From NCBI RefSeq assembly GCF_000012805.1, contig NC_007484.1, positions 1,110,001-1,142,000 on the forward strand: a DNA stretch of 32,000 nt, written 5' to 3'. Source of the DNA: Nitrosococcus oceani ATCC 19707 (GTDB lineage: Bacteria; Pseudomonadota; Gammaproteobacteria; Nitrosococcales; Nitrosococcaceae). The notes beneath the pieces are model-generated. The model worked only from the letters and a program-made list of their open reading frames with translations. It made no database searches and was not told the DNA's origin. The number at the start of each line of letters is the position of its first letter. The stretch's first letter is position 1. Made by a program: the position numbers and the translations under genes. This document shows, piece after piece, positions 1 through 31,582 of this stretch.

Positions 1-2
1 CT

Positions 3-710
3 TTGCCGGTTTTTCGTGAACGATTCTCCCAAGCACAAACCTTGGTTCTTGTGGATGATGAAATCAGCACAGGGCGGACGCTGAGAGAGCTAAGCTACAG
101 AGTGATACAAGCGTTACCCCATATTCGGCAAATTATGCTGGTGTCAATTGTCAATTGGCTTTCGCCCGCTCAAAAGCAGGTATTTCAAGAAAATGTTAAC
201 CGGCCGGTGTCTTTTGTTAGTTTGTTAGAAGGCGTGTTTTCGTTTATTCCTAATTTGGAATTTAGCCCTTCCTTGCCAGGAAAAGCTAGGCTATTTCAGC
301 CGGCGCGGCATGCTTGCCAGCAGACCGGCCGGCGGGGAATAGAGATAGGAGAAAAGTTCCAGGTGTCGAACGGTCCTTATCCAAAGGAGCGTAAGGTGTC
401 TGTGGTGGGGACCGGTGAGTTTCAATTTCAACCTTTTTTATGGGCGGAGCAGCTGGAAAGAAAAGGCTTTGATGTTCTGTTTCAGAGCACTACCCGTTCC
501 CCTATTCGGGTGGGCGGACCCATTGGCGAAAGTCTTAGCTTCAAAGATGAATATGGGGGAGGCATCCATACCTATCTTCATAATCCTCCTCGCGGCAGGG
601 AAGTTATTATTGCCTACGAATTTGCCGAATTAGCACGTAATCACAATCTTCCGGAGCAGCTTGGTGGAAGTATTTGGGGAGCGGCTGCCAATACGGGATG
701 GGATGGCTGA
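3..710 (+). CDS. Ter-cluster-associated phosphoribosyltransferase with C-terminal TRSP domain (5' end lies outside the window)
   Basis: The frame is open from the window edge. It has a type-I PRTase PRPP loop (LVLVDDEISTGRT) and the TRSP signature (LFQSTTRSPIRVGG), as I recall for Pfam PRTase_2+TRSP proteins. The stop TGA at 708-710 directly abuts the next ATG at 711. Confidence 0.75.
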   Translation: MPVFRERFSQAQTLVLVDDEISTGRTLRELSYRVIQALPHIRQIMLVSIVNWLSPAQKQVFQENVNRPVSFVSLLEGVFSFIPNLEFSPSLPGKARLFQPARHACQQTGRRGIEIGEKFQVSNGPYPKERKVSVVGTGEFQFQPFLWAEQLERKGFDVLFQSTTRSPIRVGGPIGESLSFKDEYGGGIHTYLHNPPRGREVIIAYEFAELARNHNLPEQLGGSIWGAAANTGWDG

Positions 711-1454
711 ATGGAGCGTTCCGTATTCATCTTTTCTGATCTAGATGATACTTTGTTGCAGACTCAACGCAAATGCGGGGTATCGGGTCCATTAACGGAG
801 GCGGCGGTCGATAGAGAAGGCCGTCCCTTGTCTTTCCACTCCCAGGAACAATTATTGTTGTTGCGGCTCTTTAAAGCTTGCACTTTGATTCCCGTGACCG
901 GACGCAATTTAGAGGCGTTGGGTCGAATTCGCTCACCCCTCTTTTCCAGCTATCGGGTCACTAGTCACGGTGCATTGGTTTGGGATGCCAATAATGCTTT
1001 AATCCCGGAGTGGGAGAGCACCATTAGGGGAGAGGCGCTGATTTGGGAACCGCGGATGCAACGTCTTCTTGCGGTAATGGAGGGCTATCAGCGGGCGGAG
1101 CAGGTAGAAAATTTGCGGTTTCGTATTATTTATGATGCACAGATACCTGTCTATCTTTCTATCAAGGGTAGCCCCGGACAGCTTTCAGCAGTCGAGGAGA
1201 TAGTGGCTCCAGTTTGGGTCCAGGAAATGGGAGGAAAATTTCACCGCAATGACCATAATATGGCGCTCCTTCCTCCTTATGCGGATAAGGGCAGGGCTGT
1301 GAAATACATCATGACGCTGATCCGCCAACGTTGTGAAGGGCCACCGTTATTTATTGGTATGGGTGACAGCTTGACCGATATTCCTTTCCTCCGTGCTTGC
1401 CATTACGCGCTTACACCGCAAAATAGTCAAATTCAACAGGAAGCTTGGATGTGA
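711..1454 (+). CDS. HAD-superfamily phosphatase (Ter-module associated)
   Basis: HAD motif I is present (FIFSDLDDTLLQ, DxDxT), and there is a C-terminal GMGDSLTDIPF motif (HAD motif IV-like). It is translationally coupled to both neighbours. Confidence 0.75.
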   Translation: MERSVFIFSDLDDTLLQTQRKCGVSGPLTEAAVDREGRPLSFHSQEQLLLLRLFKACTLIPVTGRNLEALGRIRSPLFSSYRVTSHGALVWDANNALIPEWESTIRGEALIWEPRMQRLLAVMEGYQRAEQVENLRFRIIYDAQIPVYLSIKGSPGQLSAVEEIVAPVWVQEMGGKFHRNDHNMALLPPYADKGRAVKYIMTLIRQRCEGPPLFIGMGDSLTDIPFLRACHYALTPQNSQIQQEAWM

Positions 1455-2575
1455 GCCGGGCGGTGGATCGCCCCGTCGGGATTGAACCTGGGCTTTCTCC
1501 TATCACGGGAAGTTACCGCCAGGACGATTGCCAATTTTTATTGACTCCACTCCAAGCCGAATTCTTCTCCATCCAAGAGAAGGAACGCCTGATTCAATCG
1601 GGTGAGAAGCATTATTCGGAGATGATCAGCTTTGAATCACCGCCTAGCGAAGCTTATTTAACCTTATTCCGAAACTTAACCCAGCGCCATAAAGGCCGTT
1701 TGGCTGCCGAAGTGATGAGGCTGGCGCAGAGTATTGTTAATACTCGACTGGCGCCTATTACTCTGGTGTCGCTGGTTCGAGCGGGTACGCCCATCGGGGC
1801 TTTATTGCAACGGGCCTTGAGCCGTCACCTCCAAGTGGATTCCCGGCACTATTCCATTTCTATTATCCGAGATCGGGGAATTGATGAACAAGCTTTAAAA
1901 TTCTTATTAAGAGAACATCGGCGTCCGGCGGCGGGGGTGGTATTTGTGGATGCCTGGACGGCCAAAGGAGTCATCACCGAAGAGTTAAAACGGGCCATTG
2001 CCCATTGGAACGCCCGCCATCAGGAGCAGCTCAAAGACACGCTTTATGTAATCTCTGACATCGGCGGAGTGGCGGATATAGCTGCGACCTATGAAGATTA
2101 TGTGATTCCCTCTGGTATTCTCAATGCGCCGGTTTCAGGGCTCATTTCCCGTTCCCTATTAAACCGCCAGATTCAACCGGGGCAGTTCCATGGCTGTACT
2201 CTTTATGAGCACCTACAGCAGTATGATGTTAGTCATTGGTTCCTGGATGAAATAGAAGCGGAAATGGATGTTAACATCGTTGCGCCCCTTCCTTCTATTT
2301 CCCGCGGGGAGCGTTATGCCCAAACCCGGATTTATCTCAATCGTTGGATCGATAGTTATGGCATTGGGGATATCAATCATATTAAACCGGGTATTGCGGA
2401 AGCAACCCGGGTGATGTTGCGCCGGGTTCCGGAAAGGCTTTTGCTGCGGGACCCGGGGGCGGAGGAAGTCGCTCATTTATTGATATTGGCGGAAGAGAAG
2501 GGGGTAGTGGTCGAGCATCAGCCGAATATGCCTTTTAATGCGGTGGCTTTTATCAAAACGATAAAAACAAGTTAG
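1445..2575 (+). CDS. StiP-family protein (PRTase_1 domain plus C-terminal PELOTA-like domain)
   Basis: It has a PRTase-like loop (GVVFVDAWTAKGVI) and a C-terminal L7Ae/PELOTA-like segment (EEVAHLLILAEEKGVVVEHQPNMPFNAVAFIK). The start is TTG 1445 or GTG 1451; the latter overlaps the HAD stop (ATGTGA). The genomic context matches Ter-associated clusters. Confidence 0.65.
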   Translation: MDVSRAVDRPVGIEPGLSPITGSYRQDDCQFLLTPLQAEFFSIQEKERLIQSGEKHYSEMISFESPPSEAYLTLFRNLTQRHKGRLAAEVMRLAQSIVNTRLAPITLVSLVRAGTPIGALLQRALSRHLQVDSRHYSISIIRDRGIDEQALKFLLREHRRPAAGVVFVDAWTAKGVITEELKRAIAHWNARHQEQLKDTLYVISDIGGVADIAATYEDYVIPSGILNAPVSGLISRSLLNRQIQPGQFHGCTLYEHLQQYDVSHWFLDEIEAEMDVNIVAPLPSISRGERYAQTRIYLNRWIDSYGIGDINHIKPGIAEATRVMLRRVPERLLLRDPGAEEVAHLLILAEEKGVVVEHQPNMPFNAVAFIKTIKTS

Positions 2576-2604
2576 GCTATTCTATAAACTTCTAGAGAAA
2601 AGCC

Positions 2605-3582
2605 ATGTACCTGTCACAACTCCAGAGCACTCAGTCGACGGTAAAAACTTATCTGGCGCAGGCCCAAATACCCCATTATATGGAACTGGGTGCTACCCTT
2701 TATATGCCTGCTACGCGGAAAGATATTGCAAGAGTTCTCAATCAACAAAAGCTGACTGGTTTGCGTTCGGCGGTGGTATGCACTGAAGATTCCATCTTGG
2801 AACAAGATCTATCTCCTGCGCTCGCTAATTTACGGTTAGTATTAGAGCAACTTCGCCCTTCCTCCATGCTGCGTTTCATTCGTCCTCGCAACCTCGAGGT
2901 ATTGTCTCAATTGATGCGTATCCCTGAAATTAGAAGGATAGATGGATTTATATTGCCTAAGGTAGACGAGAAGAATCTGCCACTTTACGCAGAACTGGCT
3001 GCCCGGATTCCAGAGCTACTTTTGATGCCTACGCTTGAGACTGAGATGGCTTTTAGTCGGCAACGGCTTGAGGCACTGCGTAAGGGACTTGCTAAGGTGA
3101 GCAATCCCATTTTATGCCTTCGGATTGGTGGTAATGATCTCCTGCGTTTGTTGGGGTTAAAGCGGCCTAAACATTTGACAATATACGATACGCCGCTGCG
3201 GAACATCATCAATGATGTCATCCTGACTTTCCGTCCAGCGGGTTATGGGCTTTCTTCTCCGGTTTTTGAGTATCTTGATAACTATGCTACTTTGCAGCGT
3301 GAAGTAGCGTTGGATATTGTCCATGGCTTGCTCACGAAGGCAGCCATTCATCCTAGTCAAATTCCAGTGGTGGAAAGGGCCTATCAGGTCTGTCAAAAAG
3401 ATATGGAGTTAGCGCAGCGCGTCCTTGAGGAAGGAACGCCAGCCGTTTTTAAACTTAATAGCCAAATGGTTGAACCGGCTACCCATTGCGCATGGGCGGA
3501 ACGGCTGCTGTTACAAGCCGAGCTGTATGGTGTCTGTTGTGAGCAGCTGAACGGGTGTGATTGTACTCCCAATGTTTCTTGA
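2605..3582 (+). CDS. HpcH/HpaI/citrate-lyase-beta-like TIM-barrel C-C bond lyase (Ter-module associated)
   Basis: 325 aa with an ATG start at 2605. The ATLYMPA, VCTEDS and LRIGGNDL segments resemble the HpcH/CitE aldolase fold. Its position after the StiP-like gene is typical of Ter-linked biosynthetic modules. Confidence 0.6.
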   Translation: MYLSQLQSTQSTVKTYLAQAQIPHYMELGATLYMPATRKDIARVLNQQKLTGLRSAVVCTEDSILEQDLSPALANLRLVLEQLRPSSMLRFIRPRNLEVLSQLMRIPEIRRIDGFILPKVDEKNLPLYAELAARIPELLLMPTLETEMAFSRQRLEALRKGLAKVSNPILCLRIGGNDLLRLLGLKRPKHLTIYDTPLRNIINDVILTFRPAGYGLSSPVFEYLDNYATLQREVALDIVHGLLTKAAIHPSQIPVVERAYQVCQKDMELAQRVLEEGTPAVFKLNSQMVEPATHCAWAERLLLQAELYGVCCEQLNGCDCTPNVS

Positions 3583-3630
3583 AAACTATTCTTTGTAGAA
3601 ACACAAAAAAATTTTAATTATCAATTATTT

Positions 3631-4632
3631 ATGAGACATTTCAAATACTCTTTTTTAGTAACCGTGGCGGGCTTGGTGGCAGCCTTTCTATGGGGTGGAC
3701 CTGCCGGTTTATTTATTGCCGCGATCCTGGGCGTTCTCGAAATTAGCTTGTCCTTCGATAATGCGGTCGTCAATGCATCTGTGCTTAAGGATATGGACCC
3801 CAAGTGGCAAGCTCGTTTTCTGACCTGGGGTATTCTGATTGCTGTATTTGGAATGCGCTTGGTTTTTCCCGTGGCCATTGTGGCTATTGTGGCTGATATT
3901 GGGATACTAGAAGTGACACAGATGGCGCTTAATGATCCGGATGCTTATTCAGCTCATTTGCTCGCTTCCCATGTAGATATTTCCGCTTTTGGCGGTATGT
4001 TTTTGCTGATGGTGTTTTTATCCTTTTTGCTTGATGAGACAAAAGAGCTGCATTGGTGGGGGCTGGTTGAAGAGAAATTGGCCGGGATCGGTAAGCTGGA
4101 ATCCATCGAGATCGTTATCGCCCTGGGAGTTTTATGGGCTCTCCAAAGTTTCTTGCCGCCCGAGGAGAAACTAGATGCCATGCTGGCTGGGATTAGTGGT
4201 GTCATGCTCTTCGTCATTGTAGGTAGTGCGTCTGGATTATTTGAGGTAGAGGAAACAGGAGAAGCGGTTACCCATGCGGCGAAGCGTAGTGGAGTAATGG
4301 GTTTTCTCTATCTTGAGGTATTGGATGCTTCTTTCTCTTTTGATGGTGTTATTGGTGCTTTTGCCATTAGCAAGGATGTCATTATTATTATGCTGGGCTT
4401 GGCGATTGGCGCCATGTTTGTTCGTTCTATTACGGTATACTTAGTCCGCAAGGGCACCCTAAGCGAGTACGTTTTCCTTGAGCATGGCGCCCACTATGCT
4501 ATTGGAGCCTTGGCGCTTATCATGCTCGCAAGCACCAAAGTTCATATACCCGAAGTGGTGACAGGGTTGATTGGTGCGGCTTTCATCGGTTTGTCTTTGC
4601 TTTCTTCTATTCGGTATCGAAATAAACATTAA
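3631..4632 (+). CDS. TerC-superfamily integral membrane protein (DUF475-like)
   Basis: It is polytopic and hydrophobic throughout. The TerC-type motif occurs twice (LEISLSFDNAVVNA and LEVLDASFSFDGVIGA). Confidence 0.75.
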   Translation: MRHFKYSFLVTVAGLVAAFLWGGPAGLFIAAILGVLEISLSFDNAVVNASVLKDMDPKWQARFLTWGILIAVFGMRLVFPVAIVAIVADIGILEVTQMALNDPDAYSAHLLASHVDISAFGGMFLLMVFLSFLLDETKELHWWGLVEEKLAGIGKLESIEIVIALGVLWALQSFLPPEEKLDAMLAGISGVMLFVIVGSASGLFEVEETGEAVTHAAKRSGVMGFLYLEVLDASFSFDGVIGAFAISKDVIIIMLGLAIGAMFVRSITVYLVRKGTLSEYVFLEHGAHYAIGALALIMLASTKVHIPEVVTGLIGAAFIGLSLLSSIRYRNKH

Positions 4633-4717
4633 TTTCAGAAAGAAAAGAGCTAAGGTATAATTCAGAAAAAAATGATACTTTTTTGAATTATAGAGAGTGT
4701 CTTTATTAGGAGGGGAT

Positions 4718-5305
4718 ATGCCAGTTAAGCTAGTAAAAGGTCAAAAGATTTCTCTTGAAAAAGAAAGCGGCGGGGCCTTAAGTAAGGTCGTCATGGGGTT
4801 GGGTTGGGATGCGGCAGGTACAGGGAAAAAGGGATTTTTCGGCTTTGGCGGCGGTGGCCAGCAAATCGATTTAGATGCCTCTTGCGTTCTGTTTGATGAA
4901 TCAGGCAATGTACTAGATACAGTCTGGTTTCGTCAGTTGCAAAGTAAAGATGGGAGCATTACCCACACTGGTGATAATCTTACGGGTGAAGGAGAAGGGG
5001 ACGATGAACAAATTATTGTGGATTTAACCCGGATTCCTGCGAGCGTCAAGAGTTTAGTGTTTGTGGTCAATAGCTTTACCGGGCAAAATTTTGGCCAGGT
5101 CGAAAATGCATTTTGCCGCCTGGTTAATCATAGCGATAACGCGGAAATTGCCCGTTATGATCTAAGCTGTCAAGGGAATCACAGTGCCCAGGTAATGGCG
5201 AAAATTTATCGCCATAATAACGATTGGAAAATGCATGCCATTGGTGAAAATGCGAGCGGTAGAACTTTTAATGACCTGCTCCCTGCTATTCGCCCTCATT
5301 TGTGA
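4718..5305 (+). CDS. terD: TerD-family stress/Ca2+-binding protein
   Basis: The N-terminus (MPVKLVKGQKISL), GLGWD, DLDAS and the Ca-binding motif GDNLTGEGEGDDE are all TerD hallmarks. ATG 4718 is preferred over the track start 4697 because the SD AGGAGGGG at 4708-4715 sits just upstream. Confidence 0.9.
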   Translation: MPVKLVKGQKISLEKESGGALSKVVMGLGWDAAGTGKKGFFGFGGGGQQIDLDASCVLFDESGNVLDTVWFRQLQSKDGSITHTGDNLTGEGEGDDEQIIVDLTRIPASVKSLVFVVNSFTGQNFGQVENAFCRLVNHSDNAEIARYDLSCQGNHSAQVMAKIYRHNNDWKMHAIGENASGRTFNDLLPAIRPHL

Positions 5306-5371
5306 TTTTTTCTGATAGATAGCCATGTTCGTGGTGCGCTATATAGGCAGAAGTTATGAGTTTAACAGAGA

Positions 5372-5412
5372 GCTTTCTCCGGCGTATTACCCTGCACGTA
5401 GCCGGAGAAAGC
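5372..5412 (+). other. Perfect 12-bp stem hairpin downstream of terD (possible terminator or RNA element)
   Basis: GCTTTCTCCGGC (5372-5383) and GCCGGAGAAAGC (5401-5412) are exact reverse complements with a 17-nt loop. A T6 run follows only at 5430-5435, so this is not a canonical intrinsic terminator. Confidence 0.35.
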
Positions 5413-5650
5413 CGCTCGCTACCTCCTGGTTTTTTACCAGCAATAGGCGCGCACCCTTCTAGCGCTTAAAGTTCTTCGCTCTCTGGTAATAAACTTCTTT
5501 TTTTTAGAGAGCTGAACGGCTCGCGTGTACTGCTATGGCCGCTGATGGACTCCTCATTCGCTGCTTTGCGAAGTGAGGATAACCTTGCGCTACTACTTAC
5601 CGATAATAGCTAGCGCAACTTCACGAGCATTGCCTGACCTTCAGTCGCGC

Positions 5651-5812
5651 TTATCTGCGAGGCGATTGTCGCCATAATATAAATGCCGAGATGAAAGCGG
5701 CAATAAAAATGAGGACAAAAAACTCCGTAAACTTGGCTCCCGCAATGCCTAAAAATGCTAGCAAGATAGCTACAATAGCAATAATAAGAGAAAGTATCGC
5801 AAGTGAAGGCAT
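5651..5812 (-). CDS. Small two-helix membrane protein, 53 aa, not in the ORF track (UPF0391/YtjA-like architecture)
   Basis: My hand translation is MPSLAILSLIIAIVAILLAFLGIAGAKFTEFFVLIFIAAFISAFILWRQSPRR, followed by a stop. The SD AGAGGAA lies about 8 nt upstream. It has two hydrophobic helices and a basic tail. An in-frame ATG at 5818 would add 2 aa. Confidence 0.5.
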   Translation of the reverse strand: MPSLAILSLIIAIVAILLAFLGIAGAKFTEFFVLIFIAAFISAFILWRQSPRR

Positions 5813-5919
5813 AATCATTTCCTCTATTTGTTTGGGTTTGGGATCTCCATATTTCCACCGTAATGGTTATATTTAGTGTAGGCTAAAAAAATAGTTTAAA
5901 AAGGAGGTAATTAGGCTTA

Positions 5920-7302
5920 ATGGCTGAGCAGCAGGGTAATATGCCTCATCAAAGCGCATTGTTTACTGATCTTTACCAGCTGAGGATGATGCAGTCCTAT
6001 TATGCGGAAGAGATGAACGCCGTTGCTGTATTCGAATTGTTTTTCCGCAAACTTCCCTCGAATCGCAACTTTGTGATGGCGGCGGGGCTCGATAATGTTC
6101 TGAGCTATCTTGAGCATCTACATTTTACGGACGAGGAGCAAGACTGGCTCAAGCAGCAAGGAGGATTCAGTCAACAATTTTTGCGGCAATTGCAGGATTT
6201 TAATTTTACCGGGGACGTGTTTGCCGTGCCGGAAGGCACCTTAGTGTTTGAAAATGAACCGGTCGTGCAGGTGATTGCGCCGCTTCCAGAGGCCCAGTTA
6301 GTGGAAACCTATCTGCTGAATCAAATTCATTTACAAAGCGTTCTGGCCACCAAGGCGGCGAGGGTAGTGAGTGCGGCTCGCGGCCATAAGGTGGTGGATT
6401 TTGGTTCACGGCGCGCCCATGGGACTGATGCGGCGCTAAAGGTAGCACGCACTAGCTACCTGGCTGGCGCAAATGCTACCTCCAATGTTTTTGCGGGCCG
6501 TGCTTATGATATACCAGTGGTGGGTACGATGGCACATAGCTTCATCCAAGCCCATCCGAGTGAATATGCGGCCCTCCGGGCTTTTATTCAGGAATTTCCA
6601 GACACTACTTTGTTAGTGGATACCTATGATACTTTGGCGGGGGTTCGTAAAGTCATTGCGTTAGCAGAGGCGCTGGGTCAGGATTTCAAGGTGGAAGCTG
6701 TTCGGCTTGATTCAGGAGACCTGGGTAAGCTAGCTAAAGAATCCCGCCGGCTGTTCGATGAAGCCGGGCTAAACCAAGTACGAATTGTGGCTTCCAGCGG
6801 ATTAGATGAGTATAAAATCCAGGCTCTACTGAAAGAGGGGGCACCTATCGATGGGTTTGGCGTGGGCACCCAATTAGCTGTTTCGGGGGATGCACCAGAG
6901 ATTGATTTCTCTTATAAATTGGTTGAATATGCGAGCCGTCCGCGGATGAAATTATCCTCAAGCAAAGAGCTCTTGCCAGGCCGCAAGCAAGTCTTTAGAT
7001 TCTTTGAAGCCGACAGGATGAAGCGGGATGTCATTGCCTGCTTTGAGGAAAATTCAGACGGCAAGCCCTTGCTTGAGCAAGTCATGAGCCAGGGTAAACG
7101 GCTTGAGCAAGGACGAGTTTCTCTGGAGAATGCACGGGAGCATGCCCGCCAGCAAATGGCACTGCTGCCTCCCGAACTTCACGCTCTGCAACGCGTGAAG
7201 CTGGGATATCCCGTGGCGGTCAGCAACTCATTGCGCCAAACTAATGAACAACTGCAGCGGGAGTTGGCCGTGGAACTCAGCCCTCGGCTTAGCGCCTCCT
7301 AG
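5920..7302 (+). CDS. pncB: Nicotinate phosphoribosyltransferase
   Basis: 460 aa. The N-terminal ALFTDLYQLRMMQSYY and the segments VVDFGSRRAHG, GTMAHSFIQ and VRLDSGDL are typical of NAPRTase. AAGGAGG lies upstream at 5901-5907. Confidence 0.85.
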   Translation: MAEQQGNMPHQSALFTDLYQLRMMQSYYAEEMNAVAVFELFFRKLPSNRNFVMAAGLDNVLSYLEHLHFTDEEQDWLKQQGGFSQQFLRQLQDFNFTGDVFAVPEGTLVFENEPVVQVIAPLPEAQLVETYLLNQIHLQSVLATKAARVVSAARGHKVVDFGSRRAHGTDAALKVARTSYLAGANATSNVFAGRAYDIPVVGTMAHSFIQAHPSEYAALRAFIQEFPDTTLLVDTYDTLAGVRKVIALAEALGQDFKVEAVRLDSGDLGKLAKESRRLFDEAGLNQVRIVASSGLDEYKIQALLKEGAPIDGFGVGTQLAVSGDAPEIDFSYKLVEYASRPRMKLSSSKELLPGRKQVFRFFEADRMKRDVIACFEENSDGKPLLEQVMSQGKRLEQGRVSLENAREHARQQMALLPPELHALQRVKLGYPVAVSNSLRQTNEQLQRELAVELSPRLSAS

Positions 7303-7372: not shown

Positions 7373-8662
7373 CTATTCTTCTGGTTTTTTAGCGGCTGGG
7401 ACGGTCAGCATTAGCACAAAGCCAACGAGAAGAAAAATGACGATAGCGCCCATGCCAATTCGCTGGCTGCCCGCCAGGTAAGTGATCCAGCCCACCAATA
7501 AGGGACCTAGGAAGGCGGTCGCTTTGCCAGAAAGGGCAAACAAGCCGAACATTTCATTGCGCAAGGACTCTGGCGCCACTCGTGCTAAAAAAGATCGGCT
7601 TGCGGCTTGGGCCGGTCCCACAAATATTCCGAGCAGGAGTCCAAAGGTCCAAAAGAGGGTCGAGGTTTCCACGATCAGGATCAGGGTGGTCAGCAAAATC
7701 AAGCTAATCAGGGATAACAGGATGGTCTTTTTGCTGCCTATCCAGTCGTCTATCCAGGCAAAAGCCGCGGCTCCCAGGCCAGCAGTGACGTTAAGGGCGA
7801 TTCCAAACAGGAGTATTTCTTGCTCGTCCATGTCGAAGGTTCCGGCCGCATAGACACCGCCAAAAGCAAACAAAGTTGCCAGACCGTCGATATAAAACAT
7901 GCGTGCAATAAGGAAGCGAGCGATAGTGCTGTACTGGCGTACATGGCGAATGGAGTCATAAAGCTGCCTCATTCCATCTTTCGTTGCCCGCCAGAGGGGT
8001 TTGCCGGTGCCTTGGGTATCGGGTGTGATGAGAAACAAGGGGAGGGCAAACAGTAAGTACCACCCGGAGACCAGGGGAAAGGTAGCGCGCACAGGCTCAG
8101 CGGAATCGGGGTCCAGGCCAAACCAATGATTTCCCCCTTGGATGAAGGCAAAGAGGGCGACGATTAGACAGGCTACGCCACCTGCATAGCCGATACTCCA
8201 GCCCCAGCCGGACCACCGCCCTACATATTTCGGTCCCGCCAAGCCGGGCAGCATGGCATTGTAAAAGATGAAAGCAAATTCAGCGCCGAGGGTGCCTAGC
8301 CCAACTAGTAGCAGTGCCAGCCAGGCATAGTCAGGCGTAGGTTTGATAAACCATAGAAGCGCCGTGGCTATAACGCACAATAAGGTGAAGACGATAATCC
8401 AGGGCTTGCGGCGTCCCCCTTGGTCGGCAATGGCCCCCAGGAGCGGTCCCGTAATGGCGATAACAAGCCCGGAGATGCCCACTATGTTCCCCCATTGGGC
8501 GCTGCCAAGAGTCTCGTTTTCCGCCACTTGCCGGGTAAAATAGGCGGCGAACACAAAGGTGGTGATAACGGCGGCAAAGGCGCTATTGGCCCAATCGTAT
8601 AAAGCCCAGGAGATAAGGCTTGCTTTAGAAGCGGGCGTTGAATGATGGCCAGATTGTGTCAT
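7373..8662 (-). CDS. MFS transporter, UMF1/Atg22-like family
   Basis: 429 aa with about 12 hydrophobic segments. The N-terminal SWALYDWANSAF signature is typical of UMF1 family transporters. Confidence 0.75.
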   Translation of the reverse strand: MTQSGHHSTPASKASLISWALYDWANSAFAAVITTFVFAAYFTRQVAENETLGSAQWGNIVGISGLVIAITGPLLGAIADQGGRRKPWIIVFTLLCVIATALLWFIKPTPDYAWLALLLVGLGTLGAEFAFIFYNAMLPGLAGPKYVGRWSGWGWSIGYAGGVACLIVALFAFIQGGNHWFGLDPDSAEPVRATFPLVSGWYLLFALPLFLITPDTQGTGKPLWRATKDGMRQLYDSIRHVRQYSTIARFLIARMFYIDGLATLFAFGGVYAAGTFDMDEQEILLFGIALNVTAGLGAAAFAWIDDWIGSKKTILLSLISLILLTTLILIVETSTLFWTFGLLLGIFVGPAQAASRSFLARVAPESLRNEMFGLFALSGKATAFLGPLLVGWITYLAGSQRIGMGAIVIFLLVGFVLMLTVPAAKKPEE

Positions 8663-27492: not shown

Positions 27493-28014
27493 TCAGCGGA
27501 TAGTTTGCTGCTTGGTGGGGAACCGAGGCGTCTCCAGGAGCGGGAGATCACCTAATTCGTCCACCTCCAGATAAGAGGAAGCCGCTATATCGGTAGCGTT
27601 CATCATTTCGGCGACCCGCTGCAAGGCCGAGATAATGAGATTTTGTTCCCAATCCTGCAAACCTTCGAATTGCCTGATAAAACTGGTTTGTAACAGCGCA
27701 GGCGAATTCTGAATGAGTTTCTCACTGCTTGCTGTCAGTTGGACGTAGACTTTACGCTTATCAGTTTCACCGCGCTGGCGGTGGATCAAGCCCCGCTTTT
27801 CCAAACGATCCAAGATGTTGGTGACTGTGGCTTGGCTGAGACTGACTTCCCTGGCGAGGACACCAATCGTCATTTCTCCCACCCGGCGAATGGTTTGCAT
27901 AATCAAGAGTTGGGGTGCCGTCAGGCCCGAAACCTTGTTGAGTTGTTTGGAGTGAAGATCAGTAGCCCGGATGATCTGGCGCAGCGCCACCAGGACTTCG
28001 TTAGTATCTTTCAT
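27493..28014 (-). CDS. ectR: MarR-family transcriptional regulator (EctR-like by position)
   Basis: It has a winged-helix core (LTAPQLLIMQTIRRVGEMTIGVLAREVSLSQATVTNILDRLEKRGLIHRQR). It is divergently transcribed from ectC, as described for EctR in halophilic methanotrophs. The symbol is tentative. Confidence 0.7.
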   Translation of the reverse strand: MKDTNEVLVALRQIIRATDLHSKQLNKVSGLTAPQLLIMQTIRRVGEMTIGVLAREVSLSQATVTNILDRLEKRGLIHRQRGETDKRKVYVQLTASSEKLIQNSPALLQTSFIRQFEGLQDWEQNLIISALQRVAEMMNATDIAASSYLEVDELGDLPLLETPRFPTKQQTIR

Positions 28015-28091
28015 CGTTTATAATACGAAGCTATTTATTACCGTTAAATAGGGTAATTAACCCAAATTGGTCCATTTTACAAAGAAAAATA

Positions 28092-28109
28092 TATTTAGTA
28101 CACTAAATA
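28092..28109. promoter_or_regulatory. 18-bp palindrome TATTTAGT-AC-ACTAAATA in the ectR/ectC divergent promoter region (candidate MarR operator)
   Basis: It has perfect 8-bp arms with a 2-nt spacer, 58 nt upstream of the ectC ATG. A second inverted repeat, ATTACC-N9-GGTAAT, lies at 28037-28057. Confidence 0.5.
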
Positions 28110-28166
28110 ATTTTCTATGAATCAGGGGCAGGCTGGATACCCGCCATAATTTGCGAGGTGCAATGA

Positions 28167-28568
28167 ATGATCGTCAGAGACTATAACAAAGCCAAGGAAA
28201 CAGACCGGCGGGTAGTAGCGAGCCAGTGGGAGAGTGTGCGGTTATTGCTCAAGAGCGATAACATGGGTTTCTCCTTTCATATCACTACCATTTATGAAGG
28301 CGCCGAACTCCCCATGGAGTATAAGCATCATTTGGAGTCGGTCTACTGTCTTTCCGGTGAGGGGGAAGTGGAAACCTTGGCCGATGGCAAAATCCATCCT
28401 ATCCGGCCAGGCGTCATTTACATTCTTGACCACAATGATCAGCATATTCTGCGGGCTAAAACTGAAATGCAGATGGCCTGCGTATTTAATCCGCCGCTGA
28501 CCGGTAAAGAAGTCCACGATTCCTCTGGCGCCTATCCCCTGGAAGCCGAGGCAGTAACTGCCGACTAA
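28167..28568 (+). CDS. ectC: L-ectoine synthase
   Basis: It is collinear over its full length with canonical EctC as I recall the Halomonas sequence: MIVR..., [44 protein letters not shown] and ACVF.P.LTG.EVH. Confidence 0.9.
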
Positions 28569-28628
28569 GGGGCGTTTCCGAACGATTTTGGCGCTATTTC
28601 CTTCCGCAACCGACACAATGATTGATAT

Positions 28629-30071
28629 ATGAATGGACATACAGTAGAAAAAATTGGTGGCACCTCCATGTCCCGCACTCAAGAAGTACTGGATAATATC
28701 CTGATGGGTAAACGCAAGGAGCAGGAACTCTATAATCGAATCTTTGTGGTATCCGCTTACGGTGGTATTACTGATATGCTGCTCGAACATAAAAAATCCG
28801 GCGCTTCAGGCGTGTACGCTCTCTATGCTGGCGCCGAGTCGGACTGGGCTTGGGGCGACTTGCTAAATAAGGTGGGCGAGCGGATGTGCGAGATCAACAT
28901 GGAAATCTTCGAGGATGATCTTAGTTGCCAAAAAGCCGATCAGTTTGTCAGAGAACGTATCGAAGGCGTCCGCTCCTGCCTGATTGATTTACACCGGCTG
29001 TGCTCCTACGGCCATTTTCAGTTAGATGAACACCTCATCACCGTCCGGGAAATGCTAGCCGCTATCGGGGAAGCCCATAGCGCCTTTAATACCGCGCTAT
29101 TGTTGCAGCAGCACGGGGTCAATGCCCATTTTATCGATCTGACCGGCTGGCGGGAGTTAGATAATCTGACCCTTGAGGAACGCATCCAACAAGCTTTCAA
29201 CTCCCTTGACCTGGCGCGGGAACTGCCCATCGTCACCGGCTACCCGCGCTGCAAGGAAGGCACCATGATGATCTACGATCGAGGCTATTCAGAGATTACC
29301 TTTTCCAAAATTGCGGTACTGACCGAGGCCCGGGAAGCCATCATCCATAAGGAATATCATCTCTCTAGCGCCGACCCGAAGGTGGTGGACAAGGACAGAG
29401 TCGAGCCCATCGGTCGTACCAATTATGATGTTGCTGATCAGCTTTCCAATCTGGGAATGGAAGCGATTCACCCAAAAGCGGCCAAGGGTCTGCGGCAGTG
29501 CCATATTCCCCTTAGAGTCAAAAATGCCTTCGATCCCGATCATGCCGGCACCCTCATTGATGGGGACTATAAGAGCGATACGCCCTGCGTGGAAATTATT
29601 GCTGGCCGCAAGGGAGTGTTTGCCATTGAATTCTTTGAGCAGGATATGGTGGGAAGTTCGGGTTACGATACTCAATTGCTGGCCCTCCTGGAGCGGTTCA
29701 AGCTCAAAATCGTAGCCAAGGACACCAATGCCAACACCATTACCCATTTCGTGGCTAGCTCCTTAAAAGCCATCAAACGGGTGACCCACGCCATGGAAGA
29801 CGCTTTCCCCTCGGCTGCGGTGGCAGTGCGCAAGGTGGCTCTGGTTTCCGCTATCGGCTCCAATATGCAAGTGCCGGGGCTCTTGTCCAATGCTGTCAGC
29901 GCCCTGGCCAAGGCAGACATCAATATTCTGGCGCTGCATCAATCTATGCGGCAGGTGGATATGCAGTTCGTAGTGGATGAAAAAGATTACGAAGAAGCCA
30001 TCATCCATCTCCATGAACACCTTATCGAAAGCTACTCCCTGCCTGCCCCCCGTTCCGTGGGAGCCGCTTAG
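28629..30071 (+). CDS. ask: Aspartate kinase, ectoine-associated type (Ask_Ect)
   Basis: The N-terminal VEKIGGTSM kinase motif is present and the length is 480 aa, with C-terminal ACT-like repeats. It lies 60 nt downstream of ectC, and I saw no hairpin in between. Confidence 0.85.
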   Translation: MNGHTVEKIGGTSMSRTQEVLDNILMGKRKEQELYNRIFVVSAYGGITDMLLEHKKSGASGVYALYAGAESDWAWGDLLNKVGERMCEINMEIFEDDLSCQKADQFVRERIEGVRSCLIDLHRLCSYGHFQLDEHLITVREMLAAIGEAHSAFNTALLLQQHGVNAHFIDLTGWRELDNLTLEERIQQAFNSLDLARELPIVTGYPRCKEGTMMIYDRGYSEITFSKIAVLTEAREAIIHKEYHLSSADPKVVDKDRVEPIGRTNYDVADQLSNLGMEAIHPKAAKGLRQCHIPLRVKNAFDPDHAGTLIDGDYKSDTPCVEIIAGRKGVFAIEFFEQDMVGSSGYDTQLLALLERFKLKIVAKDTNANTITHFVASSLKAIKRVTHAMEDAFPSAAVAVRKVALVSAIGSNMQVPGLLSNAVSALAKADINILALHQSMRQVDMQFVVDEKDYEEAIIHLHEHLIESYSLPAPRSVGAA

Positions 30072-30355: not shown

Positions 30356-31582
30356 GTGCCCCCCCGTTTGAGAAAACGACTAGTCAAGTCAATTAGAAAC
30401 CGGGCTCGAGTGAGGTCGTCGGCGTCACGAAAAGCGGCGTCTCTGCCACGCCGAGAGGTAGGTGTCCGTGCCTATGAGCGCGGTGCGCGATCCAGGCTGC
30501 AAAAATTTCGGCAAGGAACGGCTTTAGCCGTTGCGTTGACCGCAGCGCTACTACTGCTGTTCGGCGGTATGGATGAAACGGCGGGTCAAGAGCCGAATAA
30601 TACCACGGTGATTTCCGCGCTTGATAGCCCTGCGGTTAAACAGCCCATCAAGGCCGATCCCGAAGCCTCGTTGGAGGAAGCGACCACGACTATCCGTGAT
30701 CTGCTAAGCGGTTTTTATGGGTTGCTGCCAAAAATTCTAATTGCCCTGCTCTTCCTGGTGGCAGCCTGGCTGTTAGGAAAAGCCTTGCGGGTGATTACCC
30801 ACAGATTGCTGCGGGGATGGGAACGAAGTGAGGCGATTGCCGCCCTGGTGCGCATCGCTCTCTTTTTAGTAGCCATTGGAGCGGGCCTCAGCGTTATTGC
30901 AGGTGATGCGAGAGCCTTGGTGGGATCAGTGGGGCTGGCTGGGCTGGCGCTCTCATGGGCGTTGCAAACGCCCATCGAAAGCTTTACTGGCTGGGTGCTT
31001 AATGCCTTGCGAGACTATTATCGGCCTGGGGACCGTATTGCAGTGGGTGAGGTTTTTGGCGATGTATACCGCATTGACATTTTGACAACGACGGTTTGGG
31101 AAGCAGGCGGATCTGGCAAGCACGTGGCGGGCGCGCAACCGACGGGAGCTTTTATTACCTTTCCGAATTGGGAAATTCTCCGCTCCAATATTATCAATTA
31201 CAGTCGGGACTTTCCCTATGTGTGGGATGAAGTCGTGTTCGGGATTGCCAATGAAAGCGATCTCGCCTACACCGTCGAGATCTTTCGGCGCGTTGCCGGA
31301 GAAGTGGTTGGACCGATGATGCGTCAACCTATCGCCGAGTATCGGCGCTTGTTAGAGCGCGAGCGGCTAGCGTTCGATGTGGAAGCCGAGCCGCAGGTGT
31401 ATCTCTCCTTGGCAGAGGCATGGACCAACTGCACCATCCGTTATCTGGTGCCGGTTCGGCAGCGGCGGCGATGGGCGAGCGAGTTAATTCTAGCACTCTC
31501 CATTGAGATGATACGCCCCGAACACAAGGATCGCATCATAGGAGGGTATCCCCGTAGGGAAATCGATTTACTCGACAATTAG
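30356..31582 (+). CDS. MscS-family mechanosensitive ion channel
   Basis: It has a pore helix and beta-domain signature: GLAGLALSWALQTPIESFTGWVLNALRDYYRPGDRIAVGEVFGDVYRIDILTTTVWE. The GTG start gives a ~55-aa Arg-rich N-terminus, so the true start is uncertain. Confidence 0.75.
   Translation: MPPRLRKRLVKSIRNRARVRSSASRKAASLPRREVGVRAYERGARSRLQKFRQGTALAVALTAALLLLFGGMDETAGQEPNNTTVISALDSPAVKQPIKADPEASLEEATTTIRDLLSGFYGLLPKILIALLFLVAAWLLGKALRVITHRLLRGWERSEAIAALVRIALFLVAIGAGLSVIAGDARALVGSVGLAGLALSWALQTPIESFTGWVLNALRDYYRPGDRIAVGEVFGDVYRIDILTTTVWEAGGSGKHVAGAQPTGAFITFPNWEILRSNIINYSRDFPYVWDEVVFGIANESDLAYTVEIFRRVAGEVVGPMMRQPIAEYRRLLERERLAFDVEAEPQVYLSLAEAWTNCTIRYLVPVRQRRRWASELILALSIEMIRPEHKDRIIGGYPRREIDLLDN

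Follow-up and report, generated by a model that had tools for sequence, protein, structure and literature searches.

Ter gene clusters are very common: about 2,570 plasmid records match the Ter-associated protein StiP, many of them from clinical Klebsiella, E. coli, Salmonella and Enterobacter. A biosynthetic module that accompanies Ter proteins was described by Anantharaman, Iyer and Aravind in 2012 from comparative genomics, and the same combination of genes has since been published for Klebsiella (PMC8115787) and for Bacillus altitudinis (PMC11994780), with both reports citing the 2012 paper. TerB is present when the module is present, and an ATP-grasp enzyme is optional, belonging only to the larger, five-enzyme form of the module (PMC11994780). 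TerC-family proteins are associated with metal transport or Mn2+ export and with metalation in the abstracts of two further papers (PMC12096827, PMC10197570). Here we describe a Ter cluster in the chromosome of the ammonia oxidiser Nitrosococcus oceani ATCC 19707. It occupies the left-hand end (positions 1 to 5305) of a stretch of 32,000 nucleotides, referred to below as the window, which corresponds to positions 1,110,001 to 1,142,000 of the forward strand of contig NC_007484.1. A preliminary description of the window, made from its letters and open reading frames (ORFs), had taken the genes at this end for a Ter-associated module of biosynthetic enzymes that works with TerD and TerC-like proteins, and the protein families, the conserved gene order and the Ter neighbours reported here agree with that view.

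Results

Six co-directional ORFs on the + strand fill window positions 1 to 5305 (Table 1). They are six of the eight genes of a chromosomal N. oceani cluster, namely its right-hand, 3' three-quarters; that it is a Ter cluster we regard as practically certain. The genes to the left of the window were read from the N. oceani locus L001; aligned from locus position 7397 onwards, L001 and the window show 0 mismatches in the 10 kb that were compared. The lyase protein is encoded with identical sequence in the N. oceani assemblies GCA_000155655.1 and GCA_000740735.1, and the full-length PRTase shares 100% identity with the ATCC 19707 protein. As had been noticed earlier, the left edge of the window cuts the cluster: the gene of the first enzyme, a phosphoribosyltransferase (PRTase), begins 409 bases to the left, and directly upstream of it in L001, also on the + strand, are genes for a TerD protein of 192 amino acids (aa) and for a 150-aa TerB, a PF05099 protein encoded 1.1 kb left of the window. 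The complete order is terB, terD/E-like, PRTase_2-TRSP, a haloacid dehalogenase-type (HAD) phosphatase, StiP, C-C lyase, DUF475 (TerC-like) and terZ-like, and the gaps between successive genes are tight or overlapping, at 23, 64, 0, -4/-10, 29, 48 and 85 nucleotides (nt).

Table 1. Genes of the N. oceani Ter cluster that lie in the window
Feature	Position	Strand	Evidence
PRTase_2+TRSP, 3' part of gene	1..710 (ORF 3-710)	+	Pfam
HAD-IIB-type phosphatase, 247 aa	711..1454	+	motifs I-IV, PDB 6cj0 match, weak Pfam
StiP with C-terminal PELOTA_1 (L7Ae-like)	1451..2575 (or from 1445)	+	Pfam, AF2/Foldseek
TIM-barrel C-C_Bond_Lyase, HpcH/CitE-like superfamily, 325 aa	2605..3582	+	Pfam 331 bits
DUF475 integral membrane protein, TerC-related, 333 aa	3631..4632	+	Pfam 368 bits
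TerD-domain protein, TerZ-like, 195 aa	4718..5305 (alternative start 4697)	+	Pfam 185 bits

Reading the cluster as a whole changes the picture of its Ter proteins. It had been described as lacking the classical terZABE genes and as having only TerD and a TerC-like protein beside the enzymes; TerB and a second, TerD/E-like protein are in fact encoded directly upstream of the PRTase, and the TerD protein of the window is itself closest to TerZ. The ATP-grasp, TelA or vWA partners that had been anticipated upstream did not turn up, as none is encoded in the window or within 7 kb upstream of the cluster in L001. The next upstream genes there, on the divergent strand, encode PagL, an NAD-dependent epimerase and an Exo_endo_phos protein.

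The six window proteins belong to the families to which they had been provisionally assigned, with Pfam identifying PRTase_2+TRSP, StiP (formerly PRTase_1)+PELOTA_1, C-C_Bond_Lyase, DUF475 and TerD, and other evidence identifying the HAD. Judged by their conserved catalytic motifs and residues, the PRTase, HAD, lyase and StiP all look active. The window holds residues 138-372, that is, the C-terminal 235 aa, of the 372-aa PRTase, which matches Pfam PRTase_2 (E 4.6e-17) and TRSP (E 1.8e-12). It carries a canonical loop for binding phosphoribosyl pyrophosphate (PRPP), LVLVDDEISTGRT, at window positions 46-84, and within the loop VDDEISTGRT residues D155, D156, E157, T160 and G161 are invariant in the alignment. 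The AlphaFold2 (AF2) model built from a 37-sequence alignment has a mean confidence (pLDDT) of 91.6, and its best Foldseek matches in the PDB are to the folds of APRT, XPRT and OPRT (prob 1.0, TM-target 0.5-0.73). The TRSP domain covers residues ~260-372 and has a beta-alpha-beta structure with VVGTGEF and TTRSP motifs.

StiP, the second protein with features of a PRTase, matches its own Pfam family at 334 bits (E 5e-100) and PELOTA_1 at 104 bits (E 3e-30). A PDB sequence search returned no relatives of StiP or of PRTase_2/TRSP. The AF2 model of StiP (34-sequence alignment, pLDDT 92.3) gives consistent high-probability Foldseek matches in the PDB to HGPRT and PyrR (prob ~1.0, TM-target ~0.45-0.53), with rank 1 and a few other places taken by unrelated proteins that match over the whole chain at lower probability; the 50 Foldseek matches listed include no protease, and none was found by the PDB sequence search. 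Among 34 homologues, 81 residues are invariant, including the loop F165-V-D167-x-W169-T170-A-K172-G173, and H247 and C249, which lie inside the PRTase fold, are nearly so. Both StiP and PRTase_2 are therefore predicted by modelling to have a type I phosphoribosyltransferase fold, not a protease fold, and this predicted fold contradicts the label 'cysteine protease' under which StiP is annotated.

The C-C lyase (E 9e-99 to PF15617) has distant relatives of known structure in CitE and the acyl-CoA lyase beta chain (E 2e-5). In the alignment to Mycobacterium tuberculosis CitE, D178 falls on the D of the GAEDL motif, a residue that we take to be an Mg2+ ligand. D178, like E145, R93, R95, K119 and H249, shows at least 95% conservation among 52 orthologues.

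The HAD is poorly recognised by profile searches: its Pfam match, to Hydrolase_3, reaches 19.8 bits against a cut-off of 20.9, and its NCBIfam HAD hits are likewise below cut-off. Its assignment is secured instead by motifs I-IV (D10-x-D12, T63, K193 and G218-D219-x3-D223), which are at least 95% conserved in 75 orthologues, and by a full-length match (E 4e-24) to the solved HAD phosphatase 6cj0/6d3v (also 6D3W), deposited in the PDB as 'trehalose phosphatase'. A homologue 99.6% identical to 6CJ0 is encoded between the PRTase and StiP genes of a Ter cluster on the P. aeruginosa plasmid p2017-45-137A (L089, 8983-9741), and the N. oceani HAD shares 30% identity with it over its full length. Searched against PLSDB with tblastn, 6CJ0 matches 2,559 plasmid records, and their genus breakdown is identical to that of the 2,573 records that match StiP. 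Judged from sequence and gene position, the HAD of the module is the positional orthologue of the P. aeruginosa 'extra-chromosomal trehalose-6-phosphate phosphatase' (PDB 6CJ0). That a crystallised and assayed orthologue exists had escaped the preliminary description, and the link appears to have been overlooked so far more generally: among 17 papers naming both 'trehalose' and 'TerD', no title or abstract concerns it.

The crystallised enzyme is, we presume with high probability, the 'extra-chromosomal TPP' (trehalose-6-phosphate phosphatase, ecTPP) of Cross et al. 2018, whose abstract is said to report hydrolysis of trehalose-6-phosphate (T6P) that is Mg-dependent and T6P-specific. In vitro hydrolysis of T6P by Paer-ecTPP is documented (PMC6838324). 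T6P, a glycoside, ends in a primary phosphate and shares its outline with an aglycone-ribose-5'-phosphate, so the T6P activity is compatible with a final dephosphorylation step in the module; it also leaves room for a sugar-phosphate substrate.

DUF475 occupies the place of TerC in the N. oceani cluster. The protein matches the DUF475 family with E 5e-110 and, secondarily, TerC at 69 bits, in addition to NCBIfam PRK14013 (479 bits) and the YkoY subfamily, and it has no BLASTP match to the TerC of the IncHI2 plasmid ter locus at E 1e-3. The TerD protein of the window (E 9e-55 to Pfam TerD) matches the solved TerD structures 3ibz (E 7e-42) and 2kxt (E 3e-38), and is 49.7% identical to IncHI2 TerZ as against 42% to TerD/E; the upstream 192-aa protein is 66% identical to IncHI2 TerE and 63% to TerD, and the N. 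oceani TerB is 39% identical to its IncHI2 counterpart. TerD-family proteins bind Ca2+. The window TerD carries the motif GDNLTGEGEGDDE, and the pattern GDNxTGEGEGDDE, presumably the Ca2+-binding signature of TerD, is kept in both N. oceani paralogues. No ORF for TerA, a TerD-domain protein of ~385 aa, is present in the window or L001, where the only TerD proteins are those of 192 and 195 aa. Relative to a classical ter set with its biosynthetic enzymes, only TerA, the classical TerC and ATP-grasp are missing.

At the junctions of the window genes, the TGA of the PRTase gene (708-710) directly precedes the ATG (711-713) of the HAD gene, as described before. At 1449-1454, where ATGTGA had been reported as a stop/start overlap, the two genes do overlap, but not through the ATG: this codon (1449-1451) is where the HAD protein ends (...QQEAWM*), and StiP does not start there. 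StiP begins either at GTG 1451, in a GTGA overlap, or at TTG 1445, in either case overlapping the HAD stop codon, and assemblies annotate it both ways, as 374 and 376 aa. For the terZ-like gene the likely start is ATG 4718, behind AGGAGG at 4708-4713, rather than GTG 4697. The 85-nt gap between the DUF475 and terZ-like genes contains a sigma-70-like site at 4634-4661 (TTCAGA, 16-nt spacer, TATAAT; 10/12 matches). Minus-strand ORFs within 1-5305 were considered as genes and rejected: all are of 87 aa or less and lie inside well-supported + strand genes. Rfam has no match in the window at gathering thresholds, and none over the whole cluster and its upstream intergenic region even at E up to 1, so the cluster has no yybP-ykoY, PRPP or other riboswitch.

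The enzyme core of this cluster is widespread. With the StiP protein as query against a database clustered at 90% identity, 4,638 of the 8,000 candidates scored were hits at E <= 1e-10. Genes were counted by ORF clustering in the best 80 of at least 598 loci in GTDB representative genomes that encode a relative. By tblastn, StiP is present in every fetched locus, and the PRTase, HAD and StiP genes follow one another in that order in nearly all, across many gammaproteobacterial orders and a few other phyla; as it recurs in this way across related loci, the order is not due to chance. PRTase and HAD were counted at 74 of the 80 loci each and StiP at 72; the lyase, at 51/80, always follows StiP. 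Ter proteins are less regular companions, with TerD at 45/80 loci, TerB at 33/80, DUF475 at 11/80 and TerC at 9/80 (either of the last two at 20/80), and further associated genes are ATPgrasp_Ter (18/80), Glyco_trans_1_2 (14/80), AIM24 (12/80) and vWA (11/80). Two loci, L031 and L038, have the gene set of N. oceani, in the order TerB, DUF475, TerD, PRTase, HAD, StiP, lyase, TerD. A gene of the sodium/calcium exchanger family (Na_Ca_ex) occurs in or beside the Ter cluster at 16/80 loci, often between the TerD genes and the PRTase (L011, L026, L028, L029, L036, L037, L042, L046, L054, L056, L062, L069, L073 and L079 among them), which fits a theme of Ca2+ or divalent cations.

Closer to N. oceani, StiP and PRTase orthologues are found in N. 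watsonii, N. halophilus, N. wardiae, Ca. Nitrosoglobus and Ca. Nitrosacidococcus. In Ca. Nitrosacidococcus tergens, which has a genome of 1.8 Mb judged by its longest contig, the cluster (L087, 5724-11725) occupies the same site and keeps its gene order, and PagL, epimerase and Exo_endo_phos genes again lie divergently beside it. The genes downstream of it differ, and include Acyl_transf_3-SGNH and a PhoQ-like two-component system. We conclude that the cluster has been vertically retained in Nitrosococcaceae.

On its right-hand side the N. oceani cluster is followed by a 615-nt spacer with a small minus-strand ORF, and then by a + strand nicotinate phosphoribosyltransferase gene (NAPRTase, 5920-7302) of bona fide pncB type (667 bits to NF006696). 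This is the third PRTase-type gene within 7 kb, and we considered it as a third PRTase of the module. It was set aside as it lies 615 nt away and is adjacent to the cluster only in Nitrosococcus, in 0/80 related loci, so that the adjacency is probably coincidental. The spacer just after the cluster (window 5300-5450) folds unusually well as RNA (-51.1 kcal/mol, z = -3.2) and contains a perfect 12-bp inverted repeat (5372-5383 / 5401-5412) that is not a canonical intrinsic terminator; compared with the window, the spacer of N. oceani C-27 (L002) lacks 72 bp (5446-5517) and 15 bp (~5875-5889). The minus-strand ORF (~5650-5815, MIMPSLAILSLIIAIVAILLAFLGIAG...) is small and very hydrophobic, is called as a gene of 53-55 aa in assemblies, and has no Pfam hit in an extended, 82-aa version.

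Beyond the NAPRTase, the window continues with genes for an MFS transporter and an M50-CBS protease, followed by leuD, leuB, asd, fimV, truA, trpFBA, accD, folC, trmB, ectC and ask. In the region 27493-30071, a divergent MarR regulator gene is followed by ectC (ectoine synthase) and an aspartokinase gene with ACT domains; as the interval between the MarR and ectC genes holds no ORF of 110 aa or more, ectC has neither ectA nor ectB beside it. The aspartokinase gene is followed by one for an MscS-type channel (30356-31582).

Discussion

We propose that the cluster makes a signalling metabolite to which its Ter proteins respond. The mechanism, to which we give a probability of about 0.5, follows the model that Anantharaman, Iyer and Aravind derived from comparative genomics, in the form given by two later papers (PMC7824862, PMC11994780). 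PRTase_2 would transfer 5-phosphoribose from PRPP to a small nitrogenous acceptor, and the CitE/HpcH-like lyase and the divergent, PRTase-fold StiP, with its PELOTA/L7Ae-like domain, would make or tailor either this acceptor or the ribose-phosphate conjugate. The HAD phosphatase would then strip the terminal primary phosphate, leaving a nucleoside-like or glycoside-like molecule. The soluble TerD/TerZ and TerB proteins, of which we infer TerB to bind metal, may sense either this product, which would be diffusible, or the pathway flux, together with Ca2+. Under metal, oxidative or envelope stress, TerB and TerD/TerZ would act on the DUF475/TerC-family protein and so alter how divalent cations (of the Mn2+/Ca2+ type) are handled at the inner membrane. 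The present analysis contributes the gene content, the intact motifs, the PRTase folds predicted by modelling, the conserved gene order and the orthology to the classical ter locus and to the assayed HAD; what we infer from the model is which substrates are used, in which order the steps run, that TerB/TerD act as sensors and that the output is transport.

A number of observations weigh against this proposal. The preliminary description held the product to be undetermined, and the literature still calls it unknown (PMC8115787, PMC11994780, PMC7824862); none of the Ter biosynthetic modules has yet been assigned a product, a substrate or a ligand (PMC8115787, PMC11994780). Tellurite resistance is obtained without the enzymes, from terZ-F (PMC8115787) or from terC and terD alone (PMC8779313), which makes the enzymes unnecessary for the best-known Ter phenotype. 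At 13 of the 42 fully flanked loci, the enzyme core has no TerD, TerB, TerC or DUF475 gene within at least 7 kb to either side (L012, L013, L016, L018, L025, L035, L041, L047, L063, L066, L072, L077 and L082, many of them from Competibacteraceae). The coupling between enzymes and Ter proteins is therefore facultative, and this suggests that the enzyme module is able to work independently of Ter proteins. Several of these cores adjoin an ATPgrasp_Ter gene, a Glyco_trans_1_2 gene or an amino-acid-type ABC transporter (SBP_bac_3). The cluster of Ca. Nitrosacidococcus tergens has no HAD gene, and only 75 nt separate its PRTase and StiP genes; dephosphorylation must thus be dispensable there or supplied from elsewhere. 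With the T6P activity of the HAD orthologue in mind, by analogy the true substrate of the HAD could be a sugar phosphate unrelated to PRPP chemistry. StiP has a single acidic residue at the position of the PRPP loop, so it may bind phosphoribose, or process it differently, rather than transfer it. Finally, the cluster may not be a single transcription unit, as the sequence ahead of the terZ-like gene might provide that gene with a promoter of its own. Consensus scans for promoters and terminators over the cluster do no better than on shuffled sequence (16 vs 12.2±3.4 and 17 vs 9.6±3.4, respectively), and operon boundaries cannot be set by such scans.

Two other functions for the cluster as a whole are each improbable in our estimation. 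One is resistance to tellurite or other metalloid oxyanions, with the TerC-like and TerD proteins doing the work and the enzymes being accessory or irrelevant. Tellurite is very rare in the environment, and would be an unlikely selective agent for a marine ammonia oxidiser. It speaks for this function that terZ-F suffices for tellurite resistance in both E. coli and Klebsiella (PMC8115787), that the minimal resistance set in P. citronellolis is terC with terD/E (PMC8779313), and that a stiP mutant of A. baylyi is reported as tellurite-sensitive (Reichert 2013, as cited in PMC11994780); set against this, the order of the enzyme genes is conserved much more strictly than the Ter proteins, the cluster is kept at the same site in a relative with a genome of 1.8 Mb, and the Ter literature treats tellurite resistance as a side phenotype (PMC8115787). 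The other function, which we hold to be no more probable, is defence against phages or colicins, whereby a nucleoside-like product would signal infection and TerC/TerD would alter the membrane. Ter loci have been implicated in resistance to phages and colicins (PMC8115787, PMC8123226), the model of the Aravind group sees the product as a threat signal, with Ter systems also present in jumbo phages (PMC7824862), and genes for vWA, PP2C and kinase proteins of the TerY-P type accompany the module in some loci. The N. oceani cluster, however, has no vWA, kinase or phosphatase partner and is flanked by housekeeping and envelope genes, and a search of nine proteins against PADLOC-DB 2.0 (E up to 0.001) gives 0 hits. 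We also considered, and rejected, the idea that the cluster is an island of the mobile or defence kind: the window has no tRNA gene, the ORFs scanned contain no integrase or transposase domain, G+C content is only slightly low (0.44-0.51), and the synteny extends across genera of Nitrosococcaceae, unlike that of typical defence islands. Retention at the same site, together with the lack of PADLOC hits, of a tRNA gene and of integrase or transposase domains, speaks against the cluster being, in this lineage, a mobile island for defence or resistance.

The remaining alternatives concern single enzymes, and both seem to us very improbable. If StiP were a cysteine protease, the cluster would act through proteolysis or control of cell morphology and not through the synthesis of a small molecule. 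The NCBI/Pfam name 'cysteine protease StiP', the protease activity and morphology defects that Reichert et al. 2013 reported (as cited in PMC11994780) and the near-invariance of H247 and C249 all point in that direction. The confident model of StiP, in contrast, consistently matches HGPRT and PyrR, with its listed Foldseek matches free of proteases; a PRPP-loop-like motif is invariant in the protein, and the stiP gene always lies between the PRTase/HAD pair and the lyase. Similarly, the HAD could be a genuine T6P phosphatase and the cluster tied to the metabolism of trehalose or compatible solutes instead of to PRPP-derived products, as might be read from the name and in vitro activity (PMC6838324) of its closest solved relative, and from the Glyco_trans_1_2 gene that some loci have with the module. 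Against this, neither the window ORFs scanned nor the genes called in the cluster loci include a trehalose-6-phosphate synthase domain, translational coupling ties the HAD gene to those of the PRTase and StiP in essentially every locus, and 6CJ0 and StiP occur on nearly equal numbers of plasmid records with the same genus breakdown.

A further reading we put forward tentatively and consider possible but rather doubtful: the product of Ter modules may be a phosphoribosyl or glycosyl conjugate rather than a free nucleoside, with the last step carried out by a HAD of the trehalose-6-phosphate-phosphatase type. If this were true, the four-enzyme set of N. oceani, which lacks ATP-grasp, would represent the pathway in its minimal form. 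That relatives with 1.8-Mb genomes keep this set at a fixed chromosomal site would indicate a housekeeping role in envelope or divalent-cation homeostasis, with DUF475 gated by TerB/TerD/TerZ, and not a function in accessory resistance or defence. The 6CJ0 structure and the T6P assay would then open the way to immediate experiments on a pathway left an orphan since 2012.

The significance of the N. oceani locus is that of a clean, minimal chromosomal version of the cluster that has four enzymes and lacks genes for ATP-grasp, vWA and kinase proteins. The question of the product is no more testable here than at many other loci, with the exception of the cross-reference to the HAD: the structures and the in vitro assay that exist under the name ecTPP (6CJ0) could shorten the path to the product, and this applies to the whole family of Ter modules.

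Comparison with known Ter systems

The closest classical relative is the ter locus of IncHI2 plasmids (pHNTS48-1, L088; R478-type, and also known from E. coli O157/Klebsiella), which encodes the same four enzymes, likewise ordered; compared with those of N. oceani, the PRTase is 41% identical, the HAD 33%, StiP 42% and the lyase 42%. In the plasmid locus, terZABCDE(F) are divergent from a set comprising ATP-grasp, the PRTase, the HAD (annotated 'hypothetical'), StiP, the HpcH lyase, DUF4236, terW, terXY, PP2C and a kinase. The N. oceani cluster, in contrast, is one compact chromosomal unit on one strand, and is not borne by a plasmid or prophage; it does without ATP-grasp, DUF4236, TerW, TerA, the TerX/Y vWA proteins, PP2C and the kinase, and has DUF475 instead of the classical TerC.

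The cluster of Bacillus altitudinis 3W19 (PMC11994780), composed of terB, three terD, terC, lyase, PRTase, StiP, HAD, yceG and yceH, shares with N. oceani the four enzymes without ATP-grasp, TerB, TerD paralogues and a TerC-family protein, but differs in gene order, in its classical TerC and three TerD proteins, in the additional YceG and TelA (YceH) and in its Gram-positive host. On the P. aeruginosa plasmid p2017-45-137A, the order is ATP-grasp, PRTase, 'trehalose phosphatase', StiP, HpcH lyase, HAD-IB and TerD, with TerB, TerC, TerD and TerD further on. The succession of PRTase, HAD, StiP and lyase and the nearby TerD, TerB and TerC-family proteins are the same as in N. oceani, whereas the plasmid location, the interruption by copies of IS1182, ATP-grasp, the extra HAD-IB, the classical TerC and the crystallised and T6P-assayed HAD set this cluster apart. 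At the level of the membrane protein alone, the TerC membrane-domain signature of DUF475 (the secondary Pfam match given above) is shared with B. subtilis MeeF/MeeY and E. coli Alx. DUF475 differs from these in forming a separate Pfam/NCBIfam family, annotated as hypothetical, and in having no riboswitch ahead of it.

According to later papers (PMC11994780, PMC8115787, PMC7824862), the module that Anantharaman, Iyer and Aravind described has in common with N. oceani an invariant core of PRTase and HAD, an optional StiP/PRTase_1-PELOTA protein and TIM-barrel lyase, and the linkage to TerB, TerD and TerC. The N. oceani cluster corresponds to the form of that module without ATP-grasp, and does not differ from it qualitatively. 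It is not a new kind of system, but a plain member of the known and widespread module described in 2012.

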